A DNA stretch of 64,000 nt from Nitrospirota bacterium (lineage in GTDB: Bacteria; Nitrospirota; Thermodesulfovibrionia; Thermodesulfovibrionales; Dissulfurispiraceae): NCBI GenBank assembly GCA_963710375.1, contig CAVPZX010000003.1, positions 256,001 to 320,000 on the forward strand. Direction: 5' to 3'. The translations under genes and the position numbers were made by a program. Under the pieces are notes generated by a model, which was not told the DNA's origin, searched no databases, and worked only from the letters and a program-made list of their open reading frames with translations. Below are positions 5,435 to 58,804 of the stretch, piece after piece; the stretch's first letter is position 1, and every line of letters begins with the position of its first letter.

Positions 5435-6658
5435 TTACATCGATGTTTTTACTACTTTAGGGATTACCACAATACCGCCGGGACTTACATGAAACCTTTT
5501 CCTGTCCTCCTCGATGTCATACCCTATCACTGTGTCCGAGGGTATGTATACTTCCTTGTCGATAATTGCCCTGCGGATTTTCGCGTGTCTCCCGATCTCG
5601 ACATTCTCCATCAGAATAGATTCTTCTACATGGGCCCAGCTGTTTACTCTTACATTCGGCGATAGAATGGAATTCTGGACCCTCCCCCCGCTTATTATAC
5701 AGCCGTCGCAGACTGTGGAATCAAGCGCGATGCCCAGTCTCCCCCCTTTATATTCCTGGGCGAAGACGAACTTTGCGGGAGGCCCCTGCACTTTGCGCGT
5801 ACGAATAGGCCAGCTATTGTCATAAAGGTTTAACAGAGGGTCAACCGAACAGAGATCCATGTTGGCCTCCCAATATGCGTCAAGCGTTCCGACATCACGC
5901 CAGTATTTGGCCGCCTTTTTGTTTTCATCTTTAAAATTGTATGCGAAGAGCCGTCCTTTTTTAAGCAGGTCCGGGATGATATCTCTGCCAAAATCATGCG
6001 CAGTCAACATAGCAGCATCCTTTTTAAGTTCTTCGATAATCATATCGGTGTTGAAGAAGTAAACGCCCATGGATGCTACGCACCGGTCCTTATTGTGCGG
6101 AATTGTCTTGGGTTTCTCAGGCTTTTCTTCAAAGCCGATTATTTGCCAGTCATCGTCAACCTCCATTACGCCCAGGGAGGATGCCATCTTCTTATCTACC
6201 TCTATCGCCGCAACCGTACCGATTGCACCCTTTTCCTTGTGGAAGGCCAACATTTCCGAGTAGTCCATCTTATAGATATGGTCTCCTGAAAGGATGATGA
6301 GATAGGGAGGCGCCTCCTTTTCGATAAAATATATGTTTTGATATACAGCATCGGCGGTACCCGCGTACCACTGCTCGCTGACCCGTTGCTGGGGAGGGAT
6401 GGAGATGAAGAATTCGTTTAACTCGGGATTAAAGAGAGTGGCCCAACCGAGGGCAAGGTGACGGTCCAGCGAGAGCGATTTGTATTGCGTGATGACAGCC
6501 ATCTTTCTGATATTGGAATTGAGACAGTTGCTCAATGTGAAATCGATTATGCGGTATTTGCCTCCGAAAGGGACTGCGGGCTTTGCACGGTGGATGGTCA
6601 GGGGATGCAGGCGCTCTCCTTTGCCGCCTGCCAGGATAATTGCCAGCACATCCTTCAT
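5435..6658 (-). CDS. glgC: Glucose-1-phosphate adenylyltransferase
   Basis: [50 protein letters not shown]; start set at MKDVLAII (6658). Confidence 0.96.
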
Positions 6659-6745
6659 CTCGCTGTCTCTTATAACCGACTGCATGAAGAAATGTTATCA
6701 GTGCCAGGCGCAAGTGTCAAGTGTTCTGTGTGTTATAATTTTAGT

Positions 6746-8077
6746 ATGAGTGACAATAAAAAGGCTGTTTTTTGGGGGCTTCTGCTTTTTCTTTTTCCAT
6801 TCCTTTTATGGATTGTTGGTTACGCGTCCCGCATTTCCGCTGGAACTGAAGGCGCAGGGACACCTGCTAAAAAAGTGCTTTTAATTACTGTGAACGGTAT
6901 TATCAATCCCGTTGCTTCAGAGTATATCGGGGGAGCCGTCAAGCAGGCATCGGATATGAAAGCAGAGGCGCTGATTATTGAGCTTGATACGCCGGGAGGC
7001 CTCGACAGTTCGATGCGCAGCATTGTGAGGGATATCTTGGGTTCTGCTGTGCCTGTTGTTGTCTATGTTGCGCCGAGCGGTGCGCGCGCGGGATCGGCGG
7101 GAGTTTTTATTACGCTGGCAGCCCACATCGCTGCCATGGCACCCGGGACAAATATCGGGGCGGCTCACCCTGTTCAGATGGGAGAGAAGATGGAGAAGGT
7201 CATGTCGGAAAAAGTGACCAATGACGCTGCCGCCTTCATAAGAACGATTGCAGCCCAGCGGGGGAGGAATGCGAGCTGGGCTGAAGATGCGGTTCGGAAG
7301 AGTGTTTCAATTACGGAAACCGAGGCTTTGAATCTTGGGGTAATTGATCTGGTTGCAAAGGATGTTGCGGCCTTGCTTTCAGAAATTGACGGCAGAAAAG
7401 TAACAACTGTTACCGGAGAACACGTGCTGAAGACAGCCGGAGCCAAAATTGTCGAGCGCCAAATGAACTTGAGGAATAAGATATTGGACCTGATCAGCAA
7501 CCCCAATGTGGCCTATATACTGATGCTCCTCGGTTTTTACGGCCTTTTCTTTGAATTCACGAATCCGGGTGCGATCTTCCCGGGAGTAATGGGTGGAATT
7601 TGTCTTATCCTCGGATTTTATGCTCTGCAGACTTTGCCGGTGAATTATGCCGGATTGATGCTTATTATTATGGGCATTGTTCTTTTCATCCTTGAAGTGA
7701 AAATCATATCTCACGGCATTCTTACTATCGGCGGCGTAATGGCGCTTGTCTTCGGATCGCTCATGCTTTTCGAATCTTCATCGCCATTGTTCAAACTCTC
7801 AATTGCCGTCATAGTTCCGGTTGTTCTTGTCACAACCCTCTTGTTTGTATTAACGGTCAGGCTTGCCTACAAGGCATTCAGAAAAAGGCCGCTTACCGGT
7901 GCTGAGAGTCTTATCGGTCTCGAAGGTACGGCGTGGTCCGATATTACGCCTCAAGGGGGTACCGTTCGTGTTCATGGCGAATTGTGGTCTGGCTGGTCTG
8001 AAGAGCATGTTCCGAAAGGCAGCGCTGTTGTCGTCGAAGCGGTACATGGACTTAAAATAAAGGTCAGAAGAGGGTAG
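6746..8077 (+). CDS. nfeD: NfeD family membrane-bound serine protease (ClpP class)
   Basis: [30 protein letters not shown] region and C-terminal OB domain (VHGELW). Start at ATG 6746; the longer called ORF overlaps glgC. Confidence 0.9.
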
Positions 8078-8099: not shown

Positions 8100-8152
8100 C
8101 GGCGGTTCTTCCTTGAAAAAATAGTTAAACCTTCCTTACAATAGACGTCAGT

Positions 8153-9115
8153 ATGAAAGCCCTTGTCACCGGTGCAACAGGTTTTATCGGGAGCCACCTT
8201 ACCAATGCTCTCATAAGCAAAGGTTTTAGTGTCACCTGCCTGGTAAGGAACACGTCGGATGTAAGCTATATTGAAGACCTGAATGTCAGACTGGTGAAGG
8301 GCGATTGTACCCATAAGGAGTCTTTATATGAGGCTGTGGCCGGGGTTGATTATGTCTTCCATCTTGCGGGATTGACAAAGGCGTGTTCCGAAGCGGCTTT
8401 TGTAGAAGCAAATGTAAAAGGCACCGAGAACATCCTGCAGGCTGTGCTCGAAAACAATAGCGGCATCAAGCGCTTTGTTTATATGAGCAGTCTTGCGGCC
8501 GCTGGTCCGAGCAGCGATGGGGTCCCGCTGAAAGAGGATTGTTCTACGGCCCCTGTTTCACTCTACGGGAAATCCAAGCTGGCTGGGGAGCAATTTGTCC
8601 TGAAGCACAGGAACGATGTACCTGTTGTTGTCATCAGGCCTCCTGCCGTATACGGACCGCGGGACAAAGACTTGCTTGTTTTTTTCAAGATGGTAAAGGC
8701 GGGCCTTGCGCCCATGTGGGGTAGCAGCCATTATTCTTTTATATATATTGAAGACTTGATACATGGTATACTACTCTCTGCACTTGACCAAAATGCCGGG
8801 GGGGAGATTTTTTTTATGTCTGACGGCGTCATTTACTCCTCTGATGATATTATTAATGCAGTAGCCGATGCGGTCCAGAAGCGGCCTGTAAAATTCAAAA
8901 TCCCGCGATTTGCCATGTCTGTCGCAGGGTTGATTTCAGAACGGTATGGCAAGTCGTCAATTATTAATGCCGACAAGATACGGGAACTCAGGTATTCAGA
9001 CTGGATATGCGACATGTCAAAAGCAGCAGAGAGGCTGAAATTTAAGCCTCAGGTAAAAATCAAGGAAGGAGCAAGGTGGACATTTGATTGGTACAGGATC
9101 CATCAGTGGCTATGA
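8153..9115 (+). CDS. NAD-dependent epimerase/dehydratase (extended SDR); candidate sphingolipid 3-keto reductase
   Basis: TGATGFIG Rossmann motif and YGKSK catalytic motif; stop overlaps the spt start (ATGA). Confidence 0.8.
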   Translation: MKALVTGATGFIGSHLTNALISKGFSVTCLVRNTSDVSYIEDLNVRLVKGDCTHKESLYEAVAGVDYVFHLAGLTKACSEAAFVEANVKGTENILQAVLENNSGIKRFVYMSSLAAAGPSSDGVPLKEDCSTAPVSLYGKSKLAGEQFVLKHRNDVPVVVIRPPAVYGPRDKDLLVFFKMVKAGLAPMWGSSHYSFIYIEDLIHGILLSALDQNAGGEIFFMSDGVIYSSDDIINAVADAVQKRPVKFKIPRFAMSVAGLISERYGKSSIINADKIRELRYSDWICDMSKAAERLKFKPQVKIKEGARWTFDWYRIHQWL

Positions 9116-10302
9116 CCGAAACAGTCGATATATTTGAAAAGTGTTTTAAGTTTACACAAGCAAAGGAACTGCAGCATGCCGGGCTCTATCCGTTTTTCAG
9201 GATTATCGAGAGCGCGCAGGACCCCGAAGTTATTTTGAATGGACGGAAGATGATAATGGTGGGCTCGAATAATTACCTTGGCCTTACAAATCATCCGAAA
9301 GTAAAAGAAGCGGCGATAGAGGCGATAAAGAAATACGGGACAGGATGCGCCGGTTCCCGTTTTCTCAACGGAACATTGGATATTCATGTAAAGCTGGAGG
9401 AAAAGCTTGCCAGGTTTATGAGGAAGGAGTCGGCGCTTGTTTTTTCTACCGGATTTCAGGTGAACCTCGGAGTAATATCGGCTCTGGTGGGCAAGGATGA
9501 TGTGGTAATTATAGATAAGATGGACCATGCCAGTATCGTCAACGGCTGCAAATTATCGTATGGTGAGGTCAGGCGGTTCAAACACAATGATATGTCGGAT
9601 CTCGATAGAGTATTTTCCGACAATAACGGACGGGGTAAGATGCTGGTCGTTGATGGAGTGTTCAGCATGGAGGGAGATATTGCAGACCTGCCTGAAGTAG
9701 TGCGGATAGCACGTAAATACGGCGCCCGTGTTATGGTGGATGACGCTCACGGAATCGGAGTTCTCGGGAAGACCGGACGCGGGACTGTAGAACACTTCGG
9801 CATGGAAAAAGATGTGGATCTTATTATGGGCACTTACAGCAAGTCGCTCGCTTCCATCGGAGGTTTTATTGCCGGCGACGAGGATGTCGTGCAATATATC
9901 AAGCATTTCGGACGTTCATTGATTTTCAGTGCCAGTCCGCCGCCCGCCTCTGTAGCAGCGGTGAGTGCTGCCATCGACATTATAGAGAGCGAACCCGAGA
10001 GGCGAGCGAGACTATGGAAAAATACCCATACGATGATGCAGGGTTTTACAGAGCTCGGGTTTCAGACCGGACCCAGTCAGACGCCTGTGATACCAATCAT
10101 AGTCGGAGAGGACGAAACAGCTTTCCGCGCCGTGATTATGCTTCAGGAGGAAGGTGTGTTTGCCAATGTCGCTGTCTCTCCAGCAGTGCCGCAGGGGAAG
10201 GCGCTTATCAGGACAAGCTATATGGCTACGCATACGGATGAGCAACTTTCGCGCGTACTCGAAGCCTTTAAGAAAGTAGGTAAGTCATTGGGGCTTATAT
10301 AA
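9112..10302 (+). CDS. spt: Alpha-oxoamine synthase, serine palmitoyltransferase-like
   Basis: GSNNYLGL, DGVFSMEGD, DDAHG, PLP-lysine motif GTYSKSLASIGG (SKS type of bacterial Spt), N-terminal LYPFFR. Confidence 0.75.
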   Translation: MTETVDIFEKCFKFTQAKELQHAGLYPFFRIIESAQDPEVILNGRKMIMVGSNNYLGLTNHPKVKEAAIEAIKKYGTGCAGSRFLNGTLDIHVKLEEKLARFMRKESALVFSTGFQVNLGVISALVGKDDVVIIDKMDHASIVNGCKLSYGEVRRFKHNDMSDLDRVFSDNNGRGKMLVVDGVFSMEGDIADLPEVVRIARKYGARVMVDDAHGIGVLGKTGRGTVEHFGMEKDVDLIMGTYSKSLASIGGFIAGDEDVVQYIKHFGRSLIFSASPPPASVAAVSAAIDIIESEPERRARLWKNTHTMMQGFTELGFQTGPSQTPVIPIIVGEDETAFRAVIMLQEEGVFANVAVSPAVPQGKALIRTSYMATHTDEQLSRVLEAFKKVGKSLGLI

Positions 10303-11441
10303 TGAATCGAGCCGGGGCCGAGATCGAGGTCAGAGAATCAGGGACAAAGAGTGACCTAAAGGCCTTTATAAAATTTCCATTTTCTCTTTACGCGAGAGAC
10401 CCTTATTTTGTCCCCCAGTTAGTGCGGGACATGAAAACCCACTATTCCACCAGTAACCCTTTTTTAAGGCAGGCTGAAGTCAAATTTTTTATGGCCTTTA
10501 AAAACGGGCTGCCTGCCGGTCGCATTGTTTCCATTATCAACCCTGAGCATAATAGTTATCATAAGGATAACGCCGGCTTTTTCGGTTTTTTTGAGAGCGT
10601 CAACGATTCTCGTGTTGCAGACGCCCTTCTCAGGACCGTCTACGATGAACTGAGGAAAAAGGGCATGAATATAATGCGGGGTCCGATGAATTTCTCGACC
10701 AATGACGAATGCGGATTCCTTATTGAGGGGTTTGACAGTGCCCCGGTGCTCATGATGTCGTACAACCCGCCTTATTATAACAAGCTGATGGAAGGCTGGG
10801 GGATGTCGAAAGCCAAGGACCTCTACGCGTATAATTATGCGTTTACCGGCACTCCACCAGAAAAGGTCGTGAGGGTCGCTGCGCTGGCTGAAAAAAAAGG
10901 GATAGCGGCAAGGCCTATCAACATGAAAAATTTCTTGGCCGATATGCAATTGTTCAAGGATATTTATAATTCTTCATGGAAGGACAACTGGGGATTTATT
11001 CCGCTCTCTGATGAAGAAATTTCCTATAGTGCTGAAAGGATGAAGCCCCTGGTTGTGCCTGAGTTCACTCTGATTGCTGAAAAGGATGGAGAACCTGTCG
11101 GTTTTCTAGGGTTCTTGCCGGATTTTAATTCAGTGTTAAAGCATATGCACGGCAAGCTCACACCTGTAACACTGCTGAAAGCGCTGTATTTCTCAAAAAG
11201 AATCACCTCGCTCAGGGTACTTCTCTATGGAATCAAACCGGAGTACAGAAACCGTGGCGTTGATGCTCTGCTCCTTGCGGAGGGTTATAAGAATATCGTG
11301 AAGCGGGGCGGGTACAGGAATGTAGAATTTTCGTGGATTCTTGAGGACAACCTCAGGGTGCAAAGGATAATCGAACTATTCGGGGGATTGTTATACAAGA
11401 AATACAGAATATACGAAAAGAAAATAGGCGATGGGCAATAG
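10302..11441 (+). CDS. GNAT-fold N-acyltransferase, bacterial ceramide synthase (bCerS)-like
   Basis: GFFGFFES, GPMNFSTNDECG.LIEGF, YNPPYY, NWGFIP, EFSWILEDN, KKYRIYEK; translationally coupled to spt. Confidence 0.7.
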   Translation: MNRAGAEIEVRESGTKSDLKAFIKFPFSLYARDPYFVPQLVRDMKTHYSTSNPFLRQAEVKFFMAFKNGLPAGRIVSIINPEHNSYHKDNAGFFGFFESVNDSRVADALLRTVYDELRKKGMNIMRGPMNFSTNDECGFLIEGFDSAPVLMMSYNPPYYNKLMEGWGMSKAKDLYAYNYAFTGTPPEKVVRVAALAEKKGIAARPINMKNFLADMQLFKDIYNSSWKDNWGFIPLSDEEISYSAERMKPLVVPEFTLIAEKDGEPVGFLGFLPDFNSVLKHMHGKLTPVTLLKALYFSKRITSLRVLLYGIKPEYRNRGVDALLLAEGYKNIVKRGGYRNVEFSWILEDNLRVQRIIELFGGLLYKKYRIYEKKIGDGQ

Positions 11442-16336: not shown

Positions 16337-17074
16337 ATGGAGACAACACTCAGCCCATATATTACGATTCAATATGATAATCCTGCTCACCAAGAAATGC
16401 TTGTAAAACATATGGCTGAGTCTACAAAAAAAGATGAGATGTTAAAGACATGGGAACATTTATTAGATTCTGATTCAAAGGAATGTAAAGTTCAGAAATA
16501 TTTAGAGCGTTTCCCATATTTTCTCCCAGGGCTTTATGATTATCACAATGGACCTCGCAGAGGTGTCATAATCTCTAAATTTCCTTTTGGCAATGATTAC
16601 GAATCAGACTTTGCATTCGTAACTCTTAATTCGATGATGTTACAATTTACCTTCGTTGAAATAGAGCGCCATAGGAAAAAGATATTTAATAGGAATTCAT
16701 CCTTCACCCAAGACTTTAATCATTCTCTGCAACAGATACGAGACTGGAAACTGTGGGGAGAGAAAAATATTGAAATTCTTTTATCTATGTGTGCAGATTT
16801 GTTTCAGGGTTATAACATAAAGAACGATCATAAGACAGTTCGATGTTATTTGGTGTATGGGCGGAGGGACGAAGTAGAATCCTCTCAGTTGAGAAAAGAA
16901 AAGTGGAGTACTGTTGCAATATCGAATGAGAAAAGTATTGTTGTATCGACATACGATCGCCTTACTGCGAATGTTGCTATTCTACCGACTGATCGTATAC
17001 AACATAATCTTGCAGTTTGTAGATACAAAAAGCGCGGTTTCTTTCTAATGGCAGATAGATTGAGAAATAACTAA
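16337..17074 (+). CDS. Shedu (SduA C-terminal / DUF4263)-like nuclease
   Basis: E..VQKYLE.FP, KFPFGNDYESDF, FVEIE, HSLQQIRDW, VYGRR and TYDRL pattern recognised by eye; AGGAG RBS; AT-rich. Confidence 0.7.
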   Translation: METTLSPYITIQYDNPAHQEMLVKHMAESTKKDEMLKTWEHLLDSDSKECKVQKYLERFPYFLPGLYDYHNGPRRGVIISKFPFGNDYESDFAFVTLNSMMLQFTFVEIERHRKKIFNRNSSFTQDFNHSLQQIRDWKLWGEKNIEILLSMCADLFQGYNIKNDHKTVRCYLVYGRRDEVESSQLRKEKWSTVAISNEKSIVVSTYDRLTANVAILPTDRIQHNLAVCRYKKRGFFLMADRLRNN

Positions 17075-17186
17075 CAAATCGCTTATTTGGACGTCTTCAT
17101 GGGAGGTGTGATGTGTGCGGGATTTCAGGGAGAACTTCCTGAAGCCGCATCCTTCACTCATGATATAATTCCTCATTGGAGGCGGC

Positions 17187-17819
17187 ATGAACAAGATGAG
17201 GAGACCAATCGAATCTGCGGTTCTGGTGAGGCACAAGAGAATCAGTGCTCTGGAACCTATTTTCCTACAATGGATTAATATCAATCAAGAGTACTGTAAT
17301 ACCTATGTAGGCGAAGACTGTCCATACTGGTATAACGAGCGTGCGGCTATTAGTATCTTGGCTGGAGCAGTGTGGAAATCTGGCGCTTTAGCTTTAGAAG
17401 AATTTAACTCAAATAAGAAATATAAAAAATCTCATTATTCAGGCAGGGCCGATCTATGGTTTGCTTTTGATAAAAAAAGGCAGTATTTAATAGAGGCAAA
17501 ATATGATAGATTTTCGCTTTCTTCTAATTCCGGGAAAATGCTCGAAAAGAGAATTGCTGAAAATATTGATCTTGCATTTCATGATGCGAAGAAGTCTAAA
17601 GAAGATGCTTGCCTCTTGCTGGGTGTTGCGTTCATTGTGCCCTACATCTCCCCATCTGCTCAGGCTAATGAAAAACGGATGTTGGCTGATTTCTATAAGC
17701 TCATAAGAAACATGCCGAATGATTTCTTGACGCTATATGTCAACCCTCATGAGATGAAAGACGAAGAATATGGATATTCATACCCTTGCATTGCGATAGT
17801 AGGAGATGTGGTCTCATAA
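17187..17819 (+). CDS. Hypothetical protein with PD-(D/E)XK nuclease-like motif
   Basis: YWYNERA..SILAGA.W, GRADLW......IEAK; GGAGG RBS. Confidence 0.6.
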   Translation: MNKMRRPIESAVLVRHKRISALEPIFLQWININQEYCNTYVGEDCPYWYNERAAISILAGAVWKSGALALEEFNSNKKYKKSHYSGRADLWFAFDKKRQYLIEAKYDRFSLSSNSGKMLEKRIAENIDLAFHDAKKSKEDACLLLGVAFIVPYISPSAQANEKRMLADFYKLIRNMPNDFLTLYVNPHEMKDEEYGYSYPCIAIVGDVVS

Positions 17820-17850
17820 CGTGCCAAGGGGAAGCCTCTATAGGAGTAAG

Positions 17851-18445
17851 ATGTTTAAAAAGATTTGGGAACTGATAAGTAACAACAGACTGCTATCCGC
17901 TCTTATTGTTATGGCCATAGGTGGTTTTATCAAACTTTTCGGCCCGGGTTTATTTTCCTGGCTTACAAAGGTTCTTTCAGTTGAATACAAGAATCCTCTC
18001 TGGCTCCTTATACTGTTTCACTGCTTAGTCGCAGCTATATTATTCATCGTGCTTCTGTTGATCCTGCGCCGTCGTTATGCAACGAGACATAACCCCGAGC
18101 CTGACTACCAAGATGACTCCCGAGCCTGACTGGAAAAAATATACAGAAGACGATTTCATCGGTATGCACTGGTCGTGGAATTATTTCGGTGACAATAAAT
18201 ACCCTAATAATTTAAAGCCGCGATGTCTACAATGCCACTTCCCCCTTGAAAATATTTTTGCCCATGACGTAAAAGGCATCTTCATTTCTTTTTTTAAATG
18301 TCCTAATGAGCAATGTCAGTACGAATGCGACCCCTTTCAGGGCACGCAAGACAATCTGTTTGAGAAAGTAAGAAAACAAATAGATGGGAATATTTATACT
18401 GGCGCTTATAAGCAAAAAATCAAGAACCATAAGGAGGACAGTTGA
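17851..18445 (+). pseudogene. Two-TM protein with C-terminal Cys-cluster domain, split by a 25-bp insertion
   Basis: Both ORFs contain PEPD encoded by the 13-bp direct repeat cccgagcctgact (18094, 18119). Deleting 25 bp fuses them in frame (HNPEPDWKKY). CLQC and CPNEQC in the C-terminal part. Confidence 0.6.
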
Positions 18446-27890: not shown

Positions 27891-28989
27891 GTGAAACTTG
27901 CGATCATAGGGCTCTCAAACGCGGGAAAGACAACAGTTTTTAATGCCCTGACCGGGCAGAGTCTCGATGCCACAATCTATCCTACAGTCAGCGGCGAGCC
28001 AAACTTCGGTGTAGTCAAAGTCCCTGACGAGAGAATCGAAAGACTCGCCGAAATCTATAAACCCAAGAAAGTTACTTATGCCACGGTTGAATATATAGAT
28101 TATATAGGACTAACAAAAGGCGATCTAGCACAGAACAGAAAGGTTTTTGATCTTATCAAGGATGTTGACGCCATTGTTCACGTAGTCAGGGCTTTTGAGG
28201 ATGATGCTGTTTCACATCCCATGAATGATATAAACCCTTTGCGGGACATAGAGACGCTGGAACTTGAGCTTGTGTTCGGCGATCTGGAATTTGTGGATAA
28301 AAGGCTTGAACGCATGGACGAGGGCGCAAAAAAAGGCAAAAAACCGAACGAGGCTGAAAAAAAGCTTCTTCGGAAATGTAAGGATGCCCTCGAAAAAGAG
28401 GTCCCGCTCAGGAATGTGCAGTTTGACGAGGAAGAGCAAAAACTGATGAGGCCGCTTCAATTCATTTCAACGAAACCCGAGGTTATTGTGATAAACACAG
28501 TCTGAAGGCGACTTGAACAGCGGTAAGTCAGACACGCTGCAGTCTTCGGTAGAAAACTATGTAGCGGAGAAGGGCCTGGCAGAGACAACAAAAGTGATAA
28601 CGCTATGCGGGAAGATCGAGATGGAGATAGCGCAGCTCTCTGGTGATGAGGCAAAGGCATTTCTGGAAGATCTGGGGATAGAGGAGCCGGCCCTTAAGAA
28701 GCTTATAAAAGTCAGCTACGACCTGTTGGGCCTCATTTCGTTTCTTACTGCCGGAGAGGATGAGGTGAGGGCGTGGACCATAACAAAAGGGACAGGCGCC
28801 CAGAAAGCTGCAGGGAAAATACATTCAGACATAGAACGGGGCTTTATTCGTGCAGAACTTGTCAGTTACGATGACTTTATTGCCGACGGCGGTATGTCTG
28901 CGGCCAGGGACAGAGGCCACCTGCGGCTTGAAGGAAAGACGTATGAAGTAAAGGACGGGGACATCATCAATTTCAGATTTAATGTATAG
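27891..28989 (+). CDS. ychF: Redox-regulated ATPase YchF (+1 frameshift at ~28501, probably a sequencing error)
   Basis: GLSNAGKTT, VKVPDER, FLTAGEDEVRAW, GKIHSDIERGFIRAE, FRFNV. Removing T28501 restores INTAEGDLNSG. Confidence 0.93.
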
Positions 28990-43331: not shown

Positions 43332-44846
43332 ATGATAAAAGATATACCCTATGTAAAACTGGAGGATATGCCTAAGGTCCCATTTGTCTATAACGGCATA
43401 TCCTCCCGTTTTATCCGCGAAAACAGGATAGTTCTTCTCGACTTCAAAAATAATATACTCAGCGTGGCAATGGCAAATCCCGAAGACAGCTCAACCATCG
43501 ATGCGCTCAGGGTTGCAACGTCCGCAAATATAAAAGTCTTCGGTATCGATGCCGCCGTTTTAGAAGAATACTCATCCAAACTTTATGGGCAGGAATCTCA
43601 GAATATTAACAGGATTATCGAGGAGATCGGCGACAAGAGCGGACTTGAGTTCCTCAGGGATGATGAGGAAGACGTCGGTCATCTTAAAGACCTGGCCTCC
43701 GAGGCCCCTATAATCAAATTGGTCAACATGATAATTGTAAGGGCTGTCGAAAACAGGGCCAGCGATATACACATCGAACCTTTTGAGGATGAACTGAAAG
43801 TCAGGTACCGCATCGACGGTATCCTTCATGATATAGAGTCGGTGCCCAAAAGGCTGCAGGCGGCTATCACCTCGAGAATAAAGCTTACTGCAAAGCTGAA
43901 TATCGCCGAGCGGCGATTGCCGCAGGACGGCCGCATTCGGCTTAAAGTCGGCGAAAAAGAGATCGATTTGCGCATCTCCACCGTACCGGTTCTCTACGGT
44001 GAAAGCGTGGTGATGAGGATCCTTGATAAAGAGAGTGTTATCGTAGACCTTGAGCGTCTCGGCTTCTTCCCTGAAACGCTTCACGCTTTTGAGCAGCTGA
44101 TCAGCAAGCCGAACGGCATCATACTGGTCACCGGACCGACCGGGAGCGGGAAGACCACAACGCTTTACGGCGCCCTGGACAAGATAAACTCCCCTGATAA
44201 AAAGATCATCACTGTTGAAGACCCGGTAGAATACCAGCTCAAGGGAATCAACCAGATACAGGTCAAGCCTCAAATAGGTCTGAATTTTTCGAATACGCTC
44301 CGGCACATTGTCCGGCAGGACCCTGACGTCATTATGATAGGAGAAACCAGGGACCTTGAAACGGCCCAGATAGCCATACAGGCTGCCCTCACCGGTCATC
44401 TCGTCTTCTCAACACTGCACACTAATGACGCACCCAGCGCAATCACGAGGCTCCACGACATGGGGGTAGAGCGTTTTTTACTTTCTTCCACCATTCGCGG
44501 CATTCTCGCCCAGAGACTTGTGCGTGCAATCTGTCCATCATGCAAAGAGCCTGATACCGCATCGGCCGGGGCGGAGCGCGATACGCTCCATATCCAGGGG
44601 GCGTACAGAAGCAACGGATGCGAGCAATGCGCCTTTACCGGCTACCGTGGCAGGATAGGAATATTTGAACTCATTGTGGTGGATGATGACCTGCGTAATC
44701 TTATTATGCAGGATGTTGATTCAAACAAGATCAGGGAATTGGCGCGGCGCAATGGTATGAAGACATTGCTTGAAGATGGCACAGAAAAGATAAAGGCCGG
44801 CATAACTACTCTCGGCGAACTGCTCAGGGTAACGCAGGACGGCTGA
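43332..44846 (+). CDS. gspE: T2SS-1 ATPase
   Basis: [28 protein letters not shown], CxxC...CxxC. Confidence 0.95.
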   Translation: MIKDIPYVKLEDMPKVPFVYNGISSRFIRENRIVLLDFKNNILSVAMANPEDSSTIDALRVATSANIKVFGIDAAVLEEYSSKLYGQESQNINRIIEEIGDKSGLEFLRDDEEDVGHLKDLASEAPIIKLVNMIIVRAVENRASDIHIEPFEDELKVRYRIDGILHDIESVPKRLQAAITSRIKLTAKLNIAERRLPQDGRIRLKVGEKEIDLRISTVPVLYGESVVMRILDKESVIVDLERLGFFPETLHAFEQLISKPNGIILVTGPTGSGKTTTLYGALDKINSPDKKIITVEDPVEYQLKGINQIQVKPQIGLNFSNTLRHIVRQDPDVIMIGETRDLETAQIAIQAALTGHLVFSTLHTNDAPSAITRLHDMGVERFLLSSTIRGILAQRLVRAICPSCKEPDTASAGAERDTLHIQGAYRSNGCEQCAFTGYRGRIGIFELIVVDDDLRNLIMQDVDSNKIRELARRNGMKTLLEDGTEKIKAGITTLGELLRVTQDG

Positions 44847-46039
44847 TGGCAATTTTCTCCTACAGGGCGACATCCCGCGACGGTGCAATCAGCGGCGGGT
44901 TCATCGAAGCGCTGGATGAAGCCGCGGCCCTTGAGCAGCTCAAGTCATCCGGCGTTATCCCGTTAAAGATACTTGCCCAGTCAGAAGATAAAAAAAAACG
45001 GTTTTCCCTGCGCTCCTCAGGGGCCGATCTCGGAATCTTTACCACTGAACTCTCTGCGTTGCTCAATGCGGGCCTCCCGCTTGACAGGAGCCTCAGTATA
45101 TTGTCCGAAATATCCGGGAGCGGAGAGATGAAACGGGTTACGCAATCCATTGTCAAATCGATTCGTGAGGGAAGCTCTTTTTCTGATGCCCTGCAGCGCC
45201 AGCCCGACGTTTTTCCAAGACTTTATGTGAACATGATACGGGCTGGGGAGGCCGGGGGTGTTGTAAATGTGGTACTCGATAAATTAAATGAATTTCTGGA
45301 GTCGTCCAAAGAATTAAAAGACAGCATAGTTTCCGCGATGATCTATCCTGTGATACTGATATTCACAGGCGGCGCATCAGTCGTGGTCCTCCTCACTTAT
45401 GTGCTTCCCAAGTTTACGGTCATATTTAAAGAACTGGGGACCTCTCTGCCCCTTCCAACTCAGATACTGCTCATCGTCAGTGATATTTTAAGATCATACT
45501 GGTGGATTGTTGCATCAGCGGCGGCAGCAGTGTGGATTATATTCAAGAGTTATATTAAATCAGCCAAAGGCAGATATAAATTCGATGCGTTCAAACTTAA
45601 ACTTATGAGGGATATCATCACAAAAATAGAGACCGCCCGCTTTTGCAGGACGCTGGGGACGCTCCTCCAGAGCGGGGTCCCGTTGCTTCAGGCAATGTCC
45701 AATGCAAAGGATGTAATAAACAACCAGGTTATCGCCTCTTCCATCGATGCCGTATCCAAAGGCGCCAGGGAAGGGAAGGGCATTGCTGAGCCGCTTGCCG
45801 CCGCGCAGGTGTTTCCGCAACTCGCGCTCTCGATGGTCAAGGTAGGGGAAGAAACAGGGCAATTGGATACAATGCTGCTGAAGGTTGCCGCCGCATATGA
45901 GAAAAGCCTTAAAGCCTCAGTCAAGCGGCTTATCAGCTTTATGGAACCTGCCATGATCCTTGGAATGGGCCTGGTGATCGGGTTTATAGTAATCTCAATG
46001 CTGATGGCGATATTCAGCATAACAGATCTTCCGTTTTAG
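44846..46039 (+). CDS. gspF: T2SS-1 inner-membrane platform protein
   Basis: AGLPL..SL, AGEAGG, MIYP, VGEETG, EP; three TM segments. Confidence 0.95.
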   Translation: MAIFSYRATSRDGAISGGFIEALDEAAALEQLKSSGVIPLKILAQSEDKKKRFSLRSSGADLGIFTTELSALLNAGLPLDRSLSILSEISGSGEMKRVTQSIVKSIREGSSFSDALQRQPDVFPRLYVNMIRAGEAGGVVNVVLDKLNEFLESSKELKDSIVSAMIYPVILIFTGGASVVVLLTYVLPKFTVIFKELGTSLPLPTQILLIVSDILRSYWWIVASAAAAVWIIFKSYIKSAKGRYKFDAFKLKLMRDIITKIETARFCRTLGTLLQSGVPLLQAMSNAKDVINNQVIASSIDAVSKGAREGKGIAEPLAAAQVFPQLALSMVKVGEETGQLDTMLLKVAAAYEKSLKASVKRLISFMEPAMILGMGLVIGFIVISMLMAIFSITDLPF

Positions 46040-46043
46040 CTGG

Positions 46044-46508
46044 GTGTTTCAGGTGGCCCGCTCAGATTGCCCATCTATCAATAGACAAGGTTTTACGCTC
46101 CTCGAATTGATGATCGTGCTTTTTCTCATTTCGCTCATAATGGGACTCTCGGCGGTTTATTTTTCCAACGCAATGCCGTCAACCAAGCTTAATGCTGCAG
46201 TCAGGGAACTGTCTGCAACGATCCGTTATGCCCGAACACTTGCAATGATCGACGGCAAGCTCCAGACATTAAACATTGACCTCGATGCAAAAAGATACGG
46301 CATAGAAGGGCGCGGGTATAAAGACATCGATTCCGGGATAACAATAATGGCGCTCGATCCTTTTGCAGGAGAGGTGCGCAATGGAACATACCGTCTTATG
46401 TTTCAAGCGTCAGGAGGGGTGCAGGGAGGGACGATTGTCCTGGGCAGCGGGAAAAAGAAAGTCAGTATCGGACTTGATCCGGTTGTAGGATCAGTGGTAG
46501 TGAAATGA
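46044..46508 (+). CDS. gspH: T2SS-1 minor pseudopilin H
   Basis: G|FTLLELMIVL; operon position. Confidence 0.85.
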   Translation: MFQVARSDCPSINRQGFTLLELMIVLFLISLIMGLSAVYFSNAMPSTKLNAAVRELSATIRYARTLAMIDGKLQTLNIDLDAKRYGIEGRGYKDIDSGITIMALDPFAGEVRNGTYRLMFQASGGVQGGTIVLGSGKKKVSIGLDPVVGSVVVK

Positions 46509-47071
46509 ATAATGTAAAGGGCTCGCGAATAAATAGCTTGTGCATTCAGGCGCTCAGATTTAGGTCAGATTTGGCTGATCCGACTGAGCAAAACCGCAGG
46601 CGTAGCAGAGCTACGTTGAGGATTTTGCGATTGAGGATCGGGCAAAGATGGCCTGAATCTGAGATGCATCAATGTGCAAGTTATTTATTCGCGAGCCCAG
46701 AAGGCTTTACGCTTCTTGAAATCCTTGTTGCACTCGCCCTGCTGAGCATAGCCTTACTGGTTATAGTGCAGCTTTTCTCCGCTGACCTGCGAGGCATATC
46801 TGTCTCGGACGATTACGTCGTTGCTGTTGCGACTGCAGAGTCCAGGATGAGGGAACTGCTTGACGATGATAAGCTTTCCGAGAAGAACTTGAGCGAGTAT
46901 ACCGATGATGGATACCGGATAGATACCTCTGTGAAAGAGTCGCTCACGGACAGGACCGAAAACTTACAGGTCAGAATCTTTGATATAGGACTAGCCGTTC
47001 ATTGGAGAAAATGGGGACGGGACAGGTCTGTCACCCTTAGGACCCTGAAAGTAATGAAGAAGGAACTATAA
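46505..47071 (+). CDS. gspI: T2SS-1 minor pseudopilin I with a 60-aa MITE-derived insert in its leader
   Basis: G|FTLLEILVALALL preceded by a 67-aa leader; ATG overlaps the gspH stop. Confidence 0.85.
   Translation: MNNVKGSRINSLCIQALRFRSDLADPTEQNRRRSRATLRILRLRIGQRWPESEMHQCASYLFASPEGFTLLEILVALALLSIALLVIVQLFSADLRGISVSDDYVVAVATAESRMRELLDDDKLSEKNLSEYTDDGYRIDTSVKESLTDRTENLQVRIFDIGLAVHWRKWGRDRSVTLRTLKVMKKEL
46519..46698. mobile_element. MITE-like element, family B, in frame within the gspI leader
   Basis: 180 bp with TIR gggctcgcgaataaata; reverse complement of 21926-22105; no stop codon in the gspI frame. Confidence 0.92.
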
Positions 47072-47716
47072 ATGCTTTCGACAAACCCTAATCGGGAACA
47101 TGGCTTTACGCTCCTTGAGTTGATGATATCCATTACTTTGATCGTGTTTATCCTTCTGATTGCAGGCACGGCCATCCGGCTTGGGTTGCGGTCGGTAGAC
47201 TCCGGAGAAAAGAGGATCGAATCACTCGAAAGATTCAGGGCCTCGCTAAATATCATTGATGCCCAGGTACAATCAGAACTGACGGTGCCGATGCAGGAAA
47301 ACGCCGGGAAGCACATCGTATTTCTGGGTGACGGCGAATCTATGCAATTCCCAAGCAATTTTTCCCTGTGGGGCAATCAGCCGGGATATGTTACCGTGTC
47401 GTATAAGGTGGCGCAGGACCAGTGGGGGAAACAGGACCTGTATGTTGAAGAAAGCGGCATAGGCGTTTCAGGCAAGGGGGAGGTGAAGCTCTTCGAGTTT
47501 TTTGACCGGATTTATTTTGATTATTTCTACAAAGATCCCAAAGAAGAAAAGGGCAGTTGGGTCGAAGAATGGACAACTACCGACGCTGTGCCTGAGAAGA
47601 TCCGTCTGCATCTTGTCAACGGAGAACGGGAAATGTCGTTTATCATTCCTATGAAAATGAGGGACCTCATCGTCAGGGCCGGTGCTGTTGCAGGGGCCAA
47701 TGCAGGGAGCCACTAG
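47072..47716 (+). CDS. gspJ: T2SS-1 minor pseudopilin J
   Basis: G|FTLLELMISI; C-terminal W.EEW....P..IRL. Confidence 0.85.
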   Translation: MLSTNPNREHGFTLLELMISITLIVFILLIAGTAIRLGLRSVDSGEKRIESLERFRASLNIIDAQVQSELTVPMQENAGKHIVFLGDGESMQFPSNFSLWGNQPGYVTVSYKVAQDQWGKQDLYVEESGIGVSGKGEVKLFEFFDRIYFDYFYKDPKEEKGSWVEEWTTTDAVPEKIRLHLVNGEREMSFIIPMKMRDLIVRAGAVAGANAGSH

Positions 47717-48672
47717 TGATAATGAAAGGTTTTTATAGCACGCAAAAAGGCCTGGCGTTATTTGTGGTCTTGTGGGTACTGGCCCTTCTGATGGTCACTG
47801 TACTCTCTTTCTCTTTTGTGACGAGGACAGAAACACATGCAACCCTTGGGTTCAAAGATACGGCGGAAAGGAAGTTCCTGGCCGAGGCCGGTATTGAACG
47901 GGCGATTATCGAGATTCTTTACCGCCAAAAAAATATGGCTAATCCGATAACCCTGGAGGGTCCTGAACCCTGGAAGGCTGACGGTACTGTGTATAGCGGA
48001 CAGTTGGGTGAAGGGTCTTATACAGTAAGCATTGTGGGAGAGGCCGGCAAATTAGATATTAATAAGGCGCCTGAGGTATTATTTAAAAACCTGCTTTTAA
48101 ACGCCGGGGTCAAGGAGGATGAAGCCGATATAATAGCGGACTCTGTAATGGATTGGAAAGACCCCAGTGGCTTGACGCGCCTCCACGGCGCCGGGAGCGA
48201 TTATTATTTGTCGCTGCCGGTCCCCTATAATATTAAGGGAGCTGATTTTGATACGCTCGAGGAGCTTCTGCTTGTGAAGGGAGTGACTCCTGCCTTACTT
48301 TATGGAGACAGCACTAAAAAAGGTATTATCGATTCCCTCACCGTGAATGGGTTGCCGGTAATTAATCTCAATTATGCGCCGAAGGAGGTTTTAATGGCTG
48401 TTCCAGAAATGGCTGCTGATACAGCTGATAATATAATCCAGTTCCGGCACGATCAAACCATACAGAATGTCCAGGAGGCCCTGGTGGGCGCCAATTACCA
48501 GCTGATGGCCCCTTTTATCACTGCAGGGGAAGGGAATGTCTTTACTATAGATTCGGTAGGGCACAAAGGAAACGAAAAAACAGGTTATCCTATCAGGGCA
48601 ACTGTAATGATAGAAAGTGTTAACAAATACAGATATCTGTATTACAAATCCCCAGCATACAAAGAACAATAA
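47716..48672 (+). CDS. gspK: T2SS-1 minor pseudopilin K
   Basis: G|LALFVVLW (no E5), E.GKLDIN, IADSVMDW, EELLLVKG, INLN.A. Confidence 0.9.
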   Translation: MIMKGFYSTQKGLALFVVLWVLALLMVTVLSFSFVTRTETHATLGFKDTAERKFLAEAGIERAIIEILYRQKNMANPITLEGPEPWKADGTVYSGQLGEGSYTVSIVGEAGKLDINKAPEVLFKNLLLNAGVKEDEADIIADSVMDWKDPSGLTRLHGAGSDYYLSLPVPYNIKGADFDTLEELLLVKGVTPALLYGDSTKKGIIDSLTVNGLPVINLNYAPKEVLMAVPEMAADTADNIIQFRHDQTIQNVQEALVGANYQLMAPFITAGEGNVFTIDSVGHKGNEKTGYPIRATVMIESVNKYRYLYYKSPAYKEQ

Positions 48673-48679
48673 GAGAGAA

Positions 48680-50217
48680 ATGGAAGCTATAAGAAAAATA
48701 ACTTCATTTGTCTTTGACACAGCCTCCGGGGTGAAGAAAATTACCATCCCCTTAAGGAATGCGCTTACGTTCAGTGCCGCTGATGAACGTATATCATACA
48801 AGAAAGAGCTTTGCGTAGCCATTGAAAAGACCGGCGTGTCCTTAGCATACGGGACGCGGTTCTTATCATCCCTCTCGGTCAAAGGGATGAGGCATTACCA
48901 TTACTCGTCTGCTGAGCATGCCTACCCTCAGCCAAAAGAAGCGGCATCGTCAGTAGTATTGGCCATTAGCGAATTCGGTGCTGTGGGGGCCGGTATTATT
49001 CTAAGCATTCCCAAATCCTGGGCAATTGTAAGAATCGTTGAATTTCCAGTAACGGTCAAGGAGAATATATCGGATGTCGTTACCTATGAGCTGGACCGGC
49101 TTTTCCCTTTCAGCCCCGAAGAGGCTTTTTATGACTTCATCATAACCGGCGAAACTCCTGATAATATCACTTTGGCCATTGCCGCATCAAAGGCTGATCT
49201 GATCAAATCCTATTGTGCAGCTCTTGCAGATGAGAGACTCAGTGTGGACAGGGTCACTTTAAACCTCACTTCCATAGGGTCATTGTGCCGCTCTCTCCAC
49301 AAAAATAGAGATGCCCTCTTTATCGAAACCGATAGCGATGAATATGAGGGCGCACTGTTCCTTGACACTCCCTGGCAGGGGTTGTGAGCGGCAGGTTTTC
49401 TGCTGATGACGATGCATCAAGGGCCGACATAATTTCGGCTGAGATGAGACCGCTTATCGATACCGCAAAAAGGCGTGATAACGACCCTCGTCTGTTTGCC
49501 CTGCTGCGTGGCTCCCCCGCCTTAAAAGAAAGACTCAGGACATCTCTTGCATTTCCCGTATCGCTCCTTGATGAGATTGATACCGGGCTCGGCCTCAGTT
49601 CCGGGCAAAAGAATGTCCTTTACGCGGCAGCAGGCGGTGTGATGGAATCGTTGCAGCCGGGACACCAAAAGCTGAATCTCCTCTCAAGGGGCCTGCATGA
49701 GAGAGCAAAAACACCTATGGGATTGACAGCCGTGCTTGTGGCGCTTTTAATGGTGTTATGGATAATGTGCGAGCTTGCGCCAATACGGGTTGAAACAAAA
49801 CGACTCAGGGAAATTGAGGGCCAGATAAAAATCCGCAAGAGCGGAATGAAGGATTGGGAAACGCTCAAAAACCAAATAGATGCCATCAACAGTGAGGTTG
49901 AAACAATCAACGGCTTTAAGGAAAACAGGCCGATGACACTGACTATTCTCAAAGAGCTCACTGAAGTACTACCTAGATCGGCGTGGCTGACAAGAGTGAA
50001 CATTGGCCAATCAACGGTCAACATCGAAGGCTATTCAACAAGCTCCGCCTCGGAACTCCTGTCAAGGCTTGAGGCATCAAAACATCTGGGAAAGGCTGAA
50101 TTTGCCTCTCCCACATTCAGGGATGTTCGTATGATGGCAGACCGCTTTAACATAAAAATGGAGATAAGGGGAGCCAAAGAAATGAAAGTGGCGCCGCATA
50201 AAGATGATAAAAAGTAA
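48680..50217 (+). CDS. gspL: T2SS-1 GspL / PilM-PilN-like protein (-1 frameshift at ~49370)
   Basis: FP..VKEN...V.YELDR.FPF in the first ORF; LNLL + TM + PilN-like domain in the second. Adding one C at 49370-49372 joins them (DTPLAGVVSG). Confidence 0.75.
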
Positions 50218-50755
50218 ACTGCTGGTCTTTGCAATTCCACTGATGACGATACTCTTCATTCTTGTAGTGTACCGGTACGGCTACCAGGGAATACATGCAG
50301 AGGTGGCCTCCCTGAAAGATGCCGAGGTATCCAGAACCAAAACGCTCGCGAAATATATGGCTCTTTTTGGGGAAAAACCGGAGATGGAGAAGCAACTGGC
50401 CTCACTGAAAGAGGAACGAAGGGCGGATAACTCAAAGCTTGTAGAAGGCCAGACTCCGTCAATCGCGGCAGCAGCACTACAGGAGACTGTAAACCAAATG
50501 ATTACCGCCCCGGGGGGGACCATCTTAAGCCAGCGGGTAGGGAAGCCTGAGACATTCGGCAAATTCACACTGATAACTATCAGCATGGATATAACACTGC
50601 CCGACGTACGGGCACTGGCAGATATTCTATATACCATCGAGACGCGGACTCCTTACCTCGTTGTAAAAGAAATTGATGTGCGGGTCGCTAACTTTAAAGA
50701 ACCTAAGTCGCTGGCGGTCAAGCTGGACATATCAGCGCTTACAAGCAGGAAATGA
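50204..50755 (+). CDS. gspM: T2SS-1 GspM / PilO-like protein
   Basis: N-terminal TM, AAAALQ, L..ILY.IE...PYL.V; position after gspL. Confidence 0.75.
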   Translation: MIKSKLLVFAIPLMTILFILVVYRYGYQGIHAEVASLKDAEVSRTKTLAKYMALFGEKPEMEKQLASLKEERRADNSKLVEGQTPSIAAAALQETVNQMITAPGGTILSQRVGKPETFGKFTLITISMDITLPDVRALADILYTIETRTPYLVVKEIDVRVANFKEPKSLAVKLDISALTSRK

Positions 50756-51333
50756 TAATGGGCTACCTGATGAAGAGCGTCAATCTGCTTAATATTCTAC
50801 TGGCGGCAGCCGCAGTTGCTGCGGCGCACTATATTGTTTCCCCCGCTATCAATAAGGAGAAAAATTTTTTTCCTCCTGCGGTGAAGACGGCTCCGGTACC
50901 GGCAGCGGCCGAGGAACAGAAACAAAAGGCCGGGAAAGAACCTGCCGCGCCTCCAACCGACTTCATGCTGATCGCGGACCAGAATCTCTTTCATCCCGAG
51001 AGGAAGATCCCTGTTGACAAACCACAGTCTGCGCAGCCTCCGCCAAAGCCGGAACTGGTATTGTTCGGTACATTAATAACCGGTAACACGCGCGTAGCCT
51101 ATGTTGATGACATAAAGTCACCGCTGACCACGCCCGGAAGGGGCAAGCGGATGAGGGTGCTTAAAATAGGAGATATGGTGGGGGATTTTACGCTCAAAGT
51201 GATCGATCCTGATAAGATTATTTTAGTGAGAGGAAGTGAAGTCATGACGGTCGATCTCTCAGATCTTAAAGGGAAGAGACAGAATACGGTGGGAGCGCCT
51301 AACCCTCATGTAAATCCCAATGTACGGCGATAA
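50752..51333 (+). CDS. T2SS-1 accessory bitopic protein (GspC HR / PilP-like, no PDZ)
   Basis: TM, Pro-rich linker, NLFHPER, L.L.GT.I, GD.VG.F.L..I. Confidence 0.6.
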   Translation: MIMGYLMKSVNLLNILLAAAAVAAAHYIVSPAINKEKNFFPPAVKTAPVPAAAEEQKQKAGKEPAAPPTDFMLIADQNLFHPERKIPVDKPQSAQPPPKPELVLFGTLITGNTRVAYVDDIKSPLTTPGRGKRMRVLKIGDMVGDFTLKVIDPDKIILVRGSEVMTVDLSDLKGKRQNTVGAPNPHVNPNVRR

Positions 51334-51344
51334 CAGCTTGACCC

Positions 51345-53069: not shown

Positions 53070-53344
53070 TTTATACCTGACTTAAATCGGGGATAAAAAT
53101 GTGCCGCATGCACAGGCAAGTATATCAAAAAAATGCAAAAAAAACATGCTGCGGAAAAGGATCAGTTTATTTTTGCTCTGTATCAATGTGATCTTTTAGT
53201 TCCTGTTGTTCCTCGTAGTCGATAATCATATTAACCGTTGAGGACAAAGCAATTTATAGAAAGGGCTTGACAATGACTTATCTTTTTTTCTATATTCTTT
53301 TTCTACCTGGGGTCCAGTGTCACGGCAAGGGGTATTCTACCGCA

Positions 53345-54253
53345 ATGAAAATAAGACTACATAACCTGTTTCCCGGTCCCGGGCTGCCTAAGGCGCTCAC
53401 GTCCAATTATCCAGGATTACTGACTGTCACTAACTGGCTTATGGGGTTTCTGCTGATATTTGTCGCCCTTATGCTTGTCAGGGACATTGTGGCCCTGTCA
53501 TTCAGAAAGGTGCAGGCGCCTGCGCGGGTCACTTCATATGCGGTCAGGGCCCCGAGGAAAAGCCTTCAGGAATATGCTTCTATTGTGAGGAACAATCCCT
53601 TTGGCGCACAGGGAGGAGAGCTGAAACAGCTTTCTGCTTCGGACGGAGAGTCTGCAGGATCCTACCTGTCCGGGCTCACCCTTGTGGGGACTGTTTCAGG
53701 TCCGCAGAAATATGGCTATGCAATTTTTGTGGACAAGAATAACAATCAGGAAGTATTTAAAATCGGAGATACCGTTCATGCCATGGGGATACTTCAGAGA
53801 GTTGAAAAGGACAAGGTTGTTCTTTTCGCTGTAGGCAGGGCGGTTGAGGTACCGATCATCGATGCTGTTTCCCAGGTTGACAGCGGCGCACCTCAGGGCG
53901 GACCTGCAACCCCTTTTGCCATGAACACCGGTGAAGGCAGCTATATTGTTGACCAGAGAAAGGTCAGGCAGGCGCTGGAACGGCCCGCGCAGATGATGAC
54001 GGATGCCCGGCTTCTGCCGAATGTGGTTAACGGCAAGCAGCAGGGTTTTTCAATAAGTGAAATTAAACCGAACGGCATCTATCAGAGCCTAGGACTCCAG
54101 AACGGCGATGTGCTTTTGCGCATTAATGATTTTAATATTTCGAGTACTGAGAACGCTCTGCAGGCGTTCATGGCATTAAAGGGTATGGACAAGGTGAATC
54201 TCGATATTATCAGGGGCGGAAACAAGATGACCATGAACTATATGATCAGATGA
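53345..54253 (+). CDS. gspC: T2SS-2 GspC with PDZ domain
   Basis: TM, NPFG, LTLVGTV HR domain, GLQNGDVL..IN PDZ. Confidence 0.88.
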   Translation: MKIRLHNLFPGPGLPKALTSNYPGLLTVTNWLMGFLLIFVALMLVRDIVALSFRKVQAPARVTSYAVRAPRKSLQEYASIVRNNPFGAQGGELKQLSASDGESAGSYLSGLTLVGTVSGPQKYGYAIFVDKNNNQEVFKIGDTVHAMGILQRVEKDKVVLFAVGRAVEVPIIDAVSQVDSGAPQGGPATPFAMNTGEGSYIVDQRKVRQALERPAQMMTDARLLPNVVNGKQQGFSISEIKPNGIYQSLGLQNGDVLLRINDFNISSTENALQAFMALKGMDKVNLDIIRGGNKMTMNYMIR

Positions 54254-58775: not shown

Positions 58776-58804
58776 ACCCGAGAAAGTCTTCACCGCGGAG
58801 ACCG

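Follow-up and report, generated by a model that had tools for sequence, protein, structure and literature searches.

A bacterial ceramide pathway has been described in Caulobacter crescentus, where it involves a serine palmitoyltransferase (SPT; Spt, CC_1162), the reductase CerR, also called epi (CC_1164), the bacterial ceramide synthase bCerS, also called aca (CC_1154), and the proteins AcpR (CC_1163) and AasR (CC_1165). For CC_1154 and CC_1164, the listed homologues in Escherichia coli BL21 are yghO and ECD_02852 (PMC9386255), and this homologue pair has been equated with CerS and CerR (PMC11324152). Spt-like genes are known from about 40 phyla (PMC11334938), and a ceramide cluster has been recorded in a Nitrospirota genome (PMC11789144). 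The present report concerns a 64,000-nucleotide stretch of DNA (the window) from a Nitrospirota bacterium of the family Dissulfurispiraceae (GCA_963710375.1, contig CAVPZX010000003.1, positions 256,001 to 320,000), in which three adjoining genes at 8153-11441 encode a short-chain dehydrogenase/reductase (SDR), an alpha-oxoamine synthase (AOS) and a GNAT protein. Judged from its sequence, this cerR-spt-bcerS operon very probably follows the known route of bacteria to dihydroceramide, the backbone of sphingolipids. The pathway is established and has already been predicted for the lineage, and the operon is a genuine but unremarkable instance of it.

The window holds the same three enzyme families as Caulobacter, a likeness traced through the BL21 YghO and epi homologues, but there are clear differences in organization. 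The three genes of the window form one overlapping unit without acpR, aasR, cpg or lptFG2 as neighbours, and their Spt appears to belong to the Bacteroidota/delta-proteobacterial subgroup rather than to the Rhodobacterial one. The aasR-epi-acpR-spt/yghO genes of E. coli BL21(DE3) are best-hit orthologues of the trio (Spt 42%, YghO 34%, epi 31%), yet that cluster also contains acpR, aasR and copies of lptFG, and its yghO is divergent. In two Bacteroidales loci, spt has no bcerS or cerR neighbour, whereas all three genes are joined in the window. The trio also fits the "Spt-like clade B" of Black Sea metagenomes, in which Spt-like genes of 38 phyla have cerR and bcerS nearby (PMC11334938); the name Nitrospirota has no occurrence in the main text of that paper.

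Gene arrangement and conservation

The interval 8153-11441 is filled exactly by three open reading frames (ORFs) on the forward strand. The first (8153..9115, 320 amino acids) is predicted to encode an extended SDR of the CerR/epi type, an NAD(P)H-dependent reductase. It is followed by a putative serine palmitoyltransferase gene (9112..10302, 396 amino acids from its ATG) and by a gene for a tandem-GNAT N-acyltransferase of the YghO/bCerS family, the predicted bacterial ceramide synthase (10302..11441, 379 amino acids). A TTG at 9088, chosen by the ORF finder as the start of the AOS gene, lies eight codons too early, and homologues align from the ATG at 9112. The SDR and AOS genes overlap by 4 nucleotides in an ATGA (9112-9115), and the AOS and GNAT genes by 1 nucleotide in a TAATG (10302), which fits translational coupling of all three. 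An earlier account made from the sequence alone (the sequence-only reading) had described three such genes in this order, and the three ORFs are present as it described them; the AOS motif that it singled out, GTYSKSLASIGG, occupies AOS residues 240-251.

This arrangement is not due to chance, because the contiguous order SDR-AOS-GNAT recurs in 54 of 65 related loci. The comparison was anchored on the GNAT gene and used the best 80 of 537 loci, 65 of which have at least 2.3 kb of sequence upstream of that gene. The relatives are not independent of one another, and the distribution counts given here describe conservation rather than a statistical test. Eight of the 11 noncontiguous loci are from Balneolota and have spt and bcerS adjacent, with the SDR gene nearby on the other strand. 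The remaining three comprise an unclassified locus with the SDR last, a locus in which a gap separates spt from bcerS, and a locus without either partner within 6 kb.

Whole-genome searches of 71 genomes of the order found Spt orthologues in 65 and SDR orthologues in exactly those 65, with Spt identities of 63-84% and the trio genes in single copy. GNAT/bCerS was found in 55 of 61 relatives, in 58 of 62 genomes of the order (from family tallies) and in 98 of 201 genomes of the phylum. None of the three genes was matched in five genomes (G042, G050, G153, G236 and G249), and in three genomes of one family (f10) the SDR-spt pair and bcerS are 12-16 kb apart. Clusters of the trio, in other orders, also occur in Balneolota, Aureispira, Streptomyces and Rubrobacter.

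On a Streptomyces plasmid, a similar trio stands beside a condensation-domain gene, and the SDR encoded there is the best match (42%) of the window SDR in the plasmid collection. Such a setting might indicate that the product of the trio is not a membrane sphingolipid but a non-membrane N-acyl amino-alcohol metabolite. In the order studied here, however, the trio is single-copy, conserved and surrounded by housekeeping genes, and genes for tailoring, transport or regulation are absent from its vicinity. These features fit a core envelope function, and the production of a non-membrane metabolite is regarded as very improbable.

Assignment of the synthase

The AOS contains the Pfam domain Aminotran_1_2, and its best match in the PDB is the SPT of Sphingobacterium multivorum (SmSPT; 8GUH/3A2B), with 443 bits over residues 8-391. 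Lower scores were obtained for a Thermus AONS/KBL (351 bits), Sphingomonas-type SPTs (289-307), Kbl (258-287, with the E. coli-type enzymes at 277-287), cysteate acyltransferases (247-262) and BioF (160-231). When the active site was read off the PDB-search alignment with SmSPT, 20 of the 22 residues named in PMC10196870 and PMC13692747 proved to be identical in the AOS. In SmSPT numbering, these include Asn52, Ala79-Gly80-Ser81, Phe114, Asn117, His138, Ser185, Asp210, His213, Thr241, Ser243, Lys244 and Phe272-Ser273-Ala274, and the two differences are Ser53 to Asn and Met271 to Ile. The lysine predicted to bind pyridoxal phosphate (PLP) is K244, which in the AOS lies in the sequence GTYSKS; the form G-T-F-S-K-S is considered characteristic of SPTs (PMC10196870).

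In a phylogeny of 22 rows computed with IQ-TREE, the AOS falls within an SPT clade (support 100/99) that also holds the Spt proteins of E. coli BL21 and Sphingomonas. Within it, a 98/98 subclade unites the AOS with the Spts of Bacteroides and Parabacteroides. All four of these reference Spts pass NCBIfam Spt cut-offs. The AOS is 56% identical to the Parabacteroides Spt and 49% identical to that of Bacteroides, and the best match of BL21 spt in the genome is the window AOS (42%). On this evidence the AOS is classed as an SPT-type enzyme.

The family also includes BioF and Kbl, and the PLP enzyme could in principle be one of these, with an unrelated sugar epimerase and acetyltransferase as its neighbours. 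The AOS scores 404 bits on the bioF model TIGR00858 and 415 and 340 bits on the Kbl models NF005394 and TIGR01822; moreover, E. coli Kbl has the AOS as its top match in the genome (39%), which seems to have no other Kbl. These scores nevertheless stay under the respective cut-offs of 426, 460 and 493 bits, and far under the score with an Spt model. Approximately unbiased (AU) tests reject joining the six Nitrospirota AOS rows of the tree to Kbl (p=0.00033) or to BioF (p=0.0015), and the phylogenetic check proposed in the sequence-only reading has thereby been made, with the AOS grouping with SPTs. The SKS motif and the AGSRF loop of the AOS are likewise of SPT type, and the SDR, AOS and GNAT genes are found and missed together across genomes. 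Finally, the only other full-length AOS in the genome (contig C2, 102750-103886) passes the bioF model (440 bits, cut-off 426) and appears to be the true bioF. The BioF or Kbl assignment of the window AOS has already been largely refuted by these comparisons, and its remaining probability is minute.

Biotin synthesis is accounted for elsewhere in the genome, where E. coli BioA, BioB and BioD find their best matches at three scattered places (C2:1064514, C9:81685 and C4:155472). It had been pointed out in the initial annotation that no biotin genes adjoin the AOS. This is true of its flanks, but it is no argument concerning function because the real bioF of the genome also has no bio neighbours; the genes adjoining it are mraZ-like and cysteine-desulfurase-like, as named by reading their translations.

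An additional possibility is that the same three-step chemistry operates with a main amino acid other than serine, giving 1-deoxyceramides (from alanine or glycine) or products of the sulfonolipid type (from cysteate). SmSPT accepts alanine and glycine at lower efficiency (PMC10196870), and in the Black Sea a correlation links 1-deoxy- and sulfono-ceramides to anaerobes that have Spt-like genes (PMC11334938). Also, Tyr242 replaces Phe in all six Nitrospirota rows, that is, in the query and five others. Cysteate fatty acyltransferases (CFAT, SulA, CapB; 28EH, 7U7H) share their fold and condensation chemistry with the window AOS, but the structures of such enzymes reach only 247-262 bits compared with 443 for SPT. 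The cysteate enzyme is distinguished by Ala82, Tyr115, Cys141, Ala249 and Lys280 (PMC13692747), and at the discriminating positions, which were placed by comparing the paper with SmSPT numbering and not by structural overlay, the AOS keeps the SPT-type residues Ser82, Phe115, Ser243, Ala274 and Asn118 (Asn117 of SmSPT). The remodelled cysteate pocket was not found in the AOS, which has an HAS motif after His139. A principal substrate other than serine is considered improbable.

Assignment of the N-acyltransferase

The GNAT protein contains Pfam Acetyltransf_1 at residues 224-357 (E 3e-7). When BL21 YghO is compared with the genome, the window GNAT is its sole match (34% over 373 amino acids, E 6e-70), and the N-acyltransferase of the Sphingomonas cluster matches it as well (32%, E 4e-59). 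The protein passes the homology filter for bCerS given in PMC11334938 (E <= 1e-30, coverage >= 50%), and 32 columns are invariant across nine orthologues from several phyla. Its closest named homologues carry the labels Nitrospirota, Thermodesulfovibrionales or Dissulfurispiraceae, and a GNAT 66% identical to it is present in Dissulfurispira thermophila, which has been cultured. In the plasmid collection it matches 46 records, and the four that were opened among the 40 matches listed all have the gene beside or near AOS and SDR genes. Just as for the Sphingomonas genes, the spt-cluster genes of Streptomyces and Rubrobacter have the window GNAT and SDR as their top matches in the genome.

An AlphaFold2 model built on a 103-sequence alignment shows a tandem GNAT (predicted local distance difference test 92.8). 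Its best structural match is 7Q3A (Z 23.7, root-mean-square deviation 3.5 A, 304 residues aligned), followed by 5KF1 and 2WPW, all three at 15% identity or less. The modelled fold shows an acyltransferase scaffold without indicating the substrate. No transmembrane segment is predicted in the GNAT protein, the PDB sequence search returned no relative of it, and NCBIfam offers no family for it at E 0.001. Its relationship to YghO places it in the YghO/bCerS family as a predicted ceramide synthase. Some relatives have two tandem bcerS copies after spt (L069:4007-5110 and 6001-7101; G135, contig C73), and these copies could yield different N-acyl chains.

The reductase and the order of the last two steps

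The SDR matches Pfam Epimerase (E 2e-40) and has the Rossmann motif TGATGFIG together with S112/S113 and Y138xxxK142. Its catalytic tetrad (N87, S112/S113, Y138 and K142) is intact and invariant in eight rows, and 26 invariant columns are common to it and seven cluster-linked SDRs. BL21 epi finds the window SDR as its best match in the genome (31%, E 3e-38), the next being an HpnA-like protein at E 5e-14; for Sphingomonas epi the window SDR is again best (E 1e-38, next 2e-26). The bCerS and CerR search that the sequence-only reading had suggested was carried out with BL21 YghO and epi, which rank the window GNAT and SDR, respectively, first in the genome. Even so, the SDR is the least firmly assigned of the three proteins, and its predicted role is drawn from best hits together with gene order and co-distribution.

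Two routes from 3-ketosphinganine have been proposed (reviewed in PMC10191378). In a eukaryote-like order, a cytoplasmic SDR would reduce 3-ketosphinganine to sphinganine, which the GNAT enzyme would then acylate. This variant of the ceramide pathway was put forward by Olea-Ozuna et al. (according to PMC9386255 and PMC11324152), and it agrees with a window SDR that begins at its Rossmann strand, has no signal peptide or transmembrane segment (maximum hydropathy 1.16) and shows no sequence signal for the periplasm. However, the epi proteins of E. coli and Sphingomonas also begin directly at the Rossmann strand and have no signal peptide, so this absence does not set the window SDR apart. Furthermore, a cerR deletion in Caulobacter accumulates oxidized ceramide, and CerR is periplasmic there (PMC11087976). 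Reduction before acylation seems the less likely order, albeit one that deserves serious consideration. The Caulobacter order, with acylation before reduction, is modestly favoured, and the order is not something that can be read from the sequence.

Points that weigh against a ceramide operon

Several observations count against the assignment of the locus to ceramide synthesis. For the synthase, the motif is GTYSKS rather than the canonical GTFSKS, although Thr241, Ser243 and Lys244 are kept and Phe to Tyr is the one change. The 22-row tree included no HemA, CqsA or cysteate acyltransferase references. The AOS scores 566 bits on NF047600, the Bacteroidota Spt model, for which the cut-off is 640, and an orthologue labelled Thermodesulfovibrio is under the same cut-off with 595 bits. 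Scores on the other NCBIfam Spt models are 431 for NF047599 (cut-off 500) and 347 for NF047603 (cut-off 670). The Spt models are lineage-specific, and NF047600 is the best NCBIfam family for the AOS by over 110 bits. It had been expected that the AOS would be misannotated as bioF; this was only partly right, since NCBIfam would name it neither bioF nor Spt because both scores are below the cut-offs (404/426 and 566/640). In addition, Spt-clade enzymes exist outside such operons, as demonstrated by a Priestia megaterium plasmid AOS (L124:5010-6224) that is 54% identical to the query and has a GTFSKS motif, with no bcerS or cerR within 5 kb.

For the other two enzymes, the comparison with bCerS and CerR relied on E. 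coli YghO and epi as stand-ins for the Caulobacter sequences, and the activities of these E. coli proteins are proposed in PMC9386255. The SDR tree does not separate out a CerR clade, and the query sits in an open group (89/99) that also includes the HpnA-like protein of the genome and one other SDR. Lastly, a sixth genome without Spt and SDR, G230, keeps bCerS; the gene lies at the start of a contig, and the absence of its partners is probably an assembly gap.

Proposed pathway and its context

In the first step of the proposed pathway, the PLP enzyme would condense L-serine with a long-chain acyl thioester and release CO2 to give 3-ketosphinganine, a reaction that we infer from an enzyme family recognizable by sequence, tree and active site. 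The tandem-GNAT enzyme, as its orthology indicates, would N-acylate the amine with a second acyl chain. The extended SDR, for which orthology is less firm, would reduce the 3-keto group with NAD(P)H. An arginine after the second strand of a Rossmann fold generally goes with a preference for NADPH, and given the invariant Arg32 at this position NADPH is probably the cofactor. All three proteins are predicted to be soluble or peripheral.

The acyl donor is probably acyl-CoA or the acyl-loaded form of the housekeeping acyl carrier protein (acyl-ACP), since AcpP is the only stand-alone ACP of the genome. A PF00550 scan of the genome in search of a dedicated AcpR gave only AcpP, located in the fab cluster, and one ACP domain fused within an 891-amino-acid AMP-binding protein. 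BL21 AasR matches only generic AMP-binding proteins of the genome, at 25-27%. The dedicated acpR and aasR of the Rhodobacterial five-gene system were thus not found in this genome, and the lack of a stand-alone ACP other than AcpP makes the Rhodobacterial AcpR route unlikely.

A convergent ketoacyl synthase was considered as a necessary part of the system and rejected, for there is none beside the operon here, and the genome has only FabF-type matches of 38-51%. Among the 80 related loci, 24 have a second beta-ketoacyl synthase gene near the operon, an example being L083:6656-7912 (minus strand), which is convergent after bcerS.

Head-group addition would be encoded elsewhere, and a candidate is a PAP2_3 (AUR1-like) membrane protein encoded on contig C2 (657913-658797; L129:1438-2322, minus strand). 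An orthologue is present in 51 of 71 genomes of the order, distributed as 50 of the 66 that carry the operon or bcerS (including G230) and one of the five that carry neither; three of these five operon-free genomes belong to one family. In G054 and G230 the PAP2_3 gene is the immediate neighbour of bcerS and runs on the opposite strand. These counts exclude a strict partnership with the operon, and the association is suggestive.

The genome has lpxC, so sphingolipids would sit beside lipopolysaccharide (LPS) and not replace it. A hopanoid-type cluster lies at C1:105833-115132 and includes, from the reading of translations, genes for a squalene-hopene cyclase-like protein, an HpnA-like SDR, a radical SAM protein and an RND transporter. 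The genome may combine hopanoids, sphingolipids and LPS.

Thermodesulfovibrio has been credited with the genetic potential for sphingolipids (PMC10667739, with reference to Sohlenkamp and Geiger 2016 and to Stankeviciute 2022), and the same paper reports that glycosphingolipids correlate, at the level of the community, with Thermodesulfovibrionia reads in subsurface fluids. The supplements of the roseoceramide paper (PMC11789144), as searched, contain one row named "Nitrospirota bacterium" and none for Thermodesulfovibrio. No lipid study on cultured Thermodesulfovibrio appeared in the literature listings, which is no proof of absence. A much broader proposal would hold that the order is nearly universally sphingolipid-making, with an AcpR-free Spt of the Bacteroidota type, cytoplasmic steps, a short-leader promoter and phosphoceramide made by an unlinked AUR1-like PAP2 enzyme alongside LPS and hopanoids, and that it is a main source of unexplained ceramides in anoxic subsurface and hot-spring settings. 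Taken as a whole, this proposal is speculative and rather unlikely to hold.

If lipid analysis confirmed the prediction, widespread and mostly uncultured Nitrospirota would join the proven sphingolipid producers, and the ceramides seen in subsurface fluids could be assigned with more ease. The compact, AcpR-free trio might also serve as a handy kit for examining the acyl donor and the dispute over which of the last two steps comes first.

Promoter and flanking genes

A sigma70-type promoter-like element, TTGAAA-18-TACAAT, lies on the forward strand at 8113..8142 and matches the consensus at 10 of 12 positions. It ends 10 nucleotides before the SDR start codon, and there is no Shine-Dalgarno sequence. 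On its own this match is weak because 14 sites of the same quality occur in 6.1 kb, compared with 7.6 +/- 2.3 in shuffled sequences. However, a TTGA starting at -46 to -36 relative to the SDR start is present in 34 of 54 related loci, compared with 2-5 of 54 in five control windows, and words resembling a Shine-Dalgarno sequence precede the SDR gene in only four of the 54; these loci come from related genomes that are not independent. This pattern suggests that the operon has its own, nearly leaderless promoter, with a predicted transcript start near 8149, from which the three proteins would likely be co-produced. The sequence downstream of the GNAT gene showed no convincing terminator. The operon is flanked by nfeD upstream and rodZ downstream, and beyond these lie what we take, from the ORF translations, to be glgC and rnr.

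Other features of the window and genome

The source genome comprises 3.19 Mb in nine contigs and is 98.8% complete. Three core genes are each split into two ORFs, namely ychF (N-terminal GTPase and C-terminal halves; window 27891-28989), the type II secretion gene gspE (window 57266-58775) and the housekeeping gene fabF (C8:111911-113162). Such splits point to assembly errors of the indel type; all three genes of the operon are intact. Contig C3 contains two copies of a cytochrome c biogenesis gene pair (135305-137825 and 170894-173483) with identical BLAST scores, which reflects a recent duplication or else a repeat in the assembly.

At 43332-63323, the window contains two neighbouring, tandem sets of type II secretion-like genes with two gspE, two gspF and two secretin genes as well as pseudopilins; these were named from ORF translations, and one gspE was checked in Pfam. 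The stretch at 16337-18445 has a low GC content (about 40% compared with 47-48%) and small ORFs of unknown function. A protein with a Shedu SduA_C domain is encoded at 16337-17074 (Pfam PF14082, E 1e-17), and the whole stretch looks like a small defence island.

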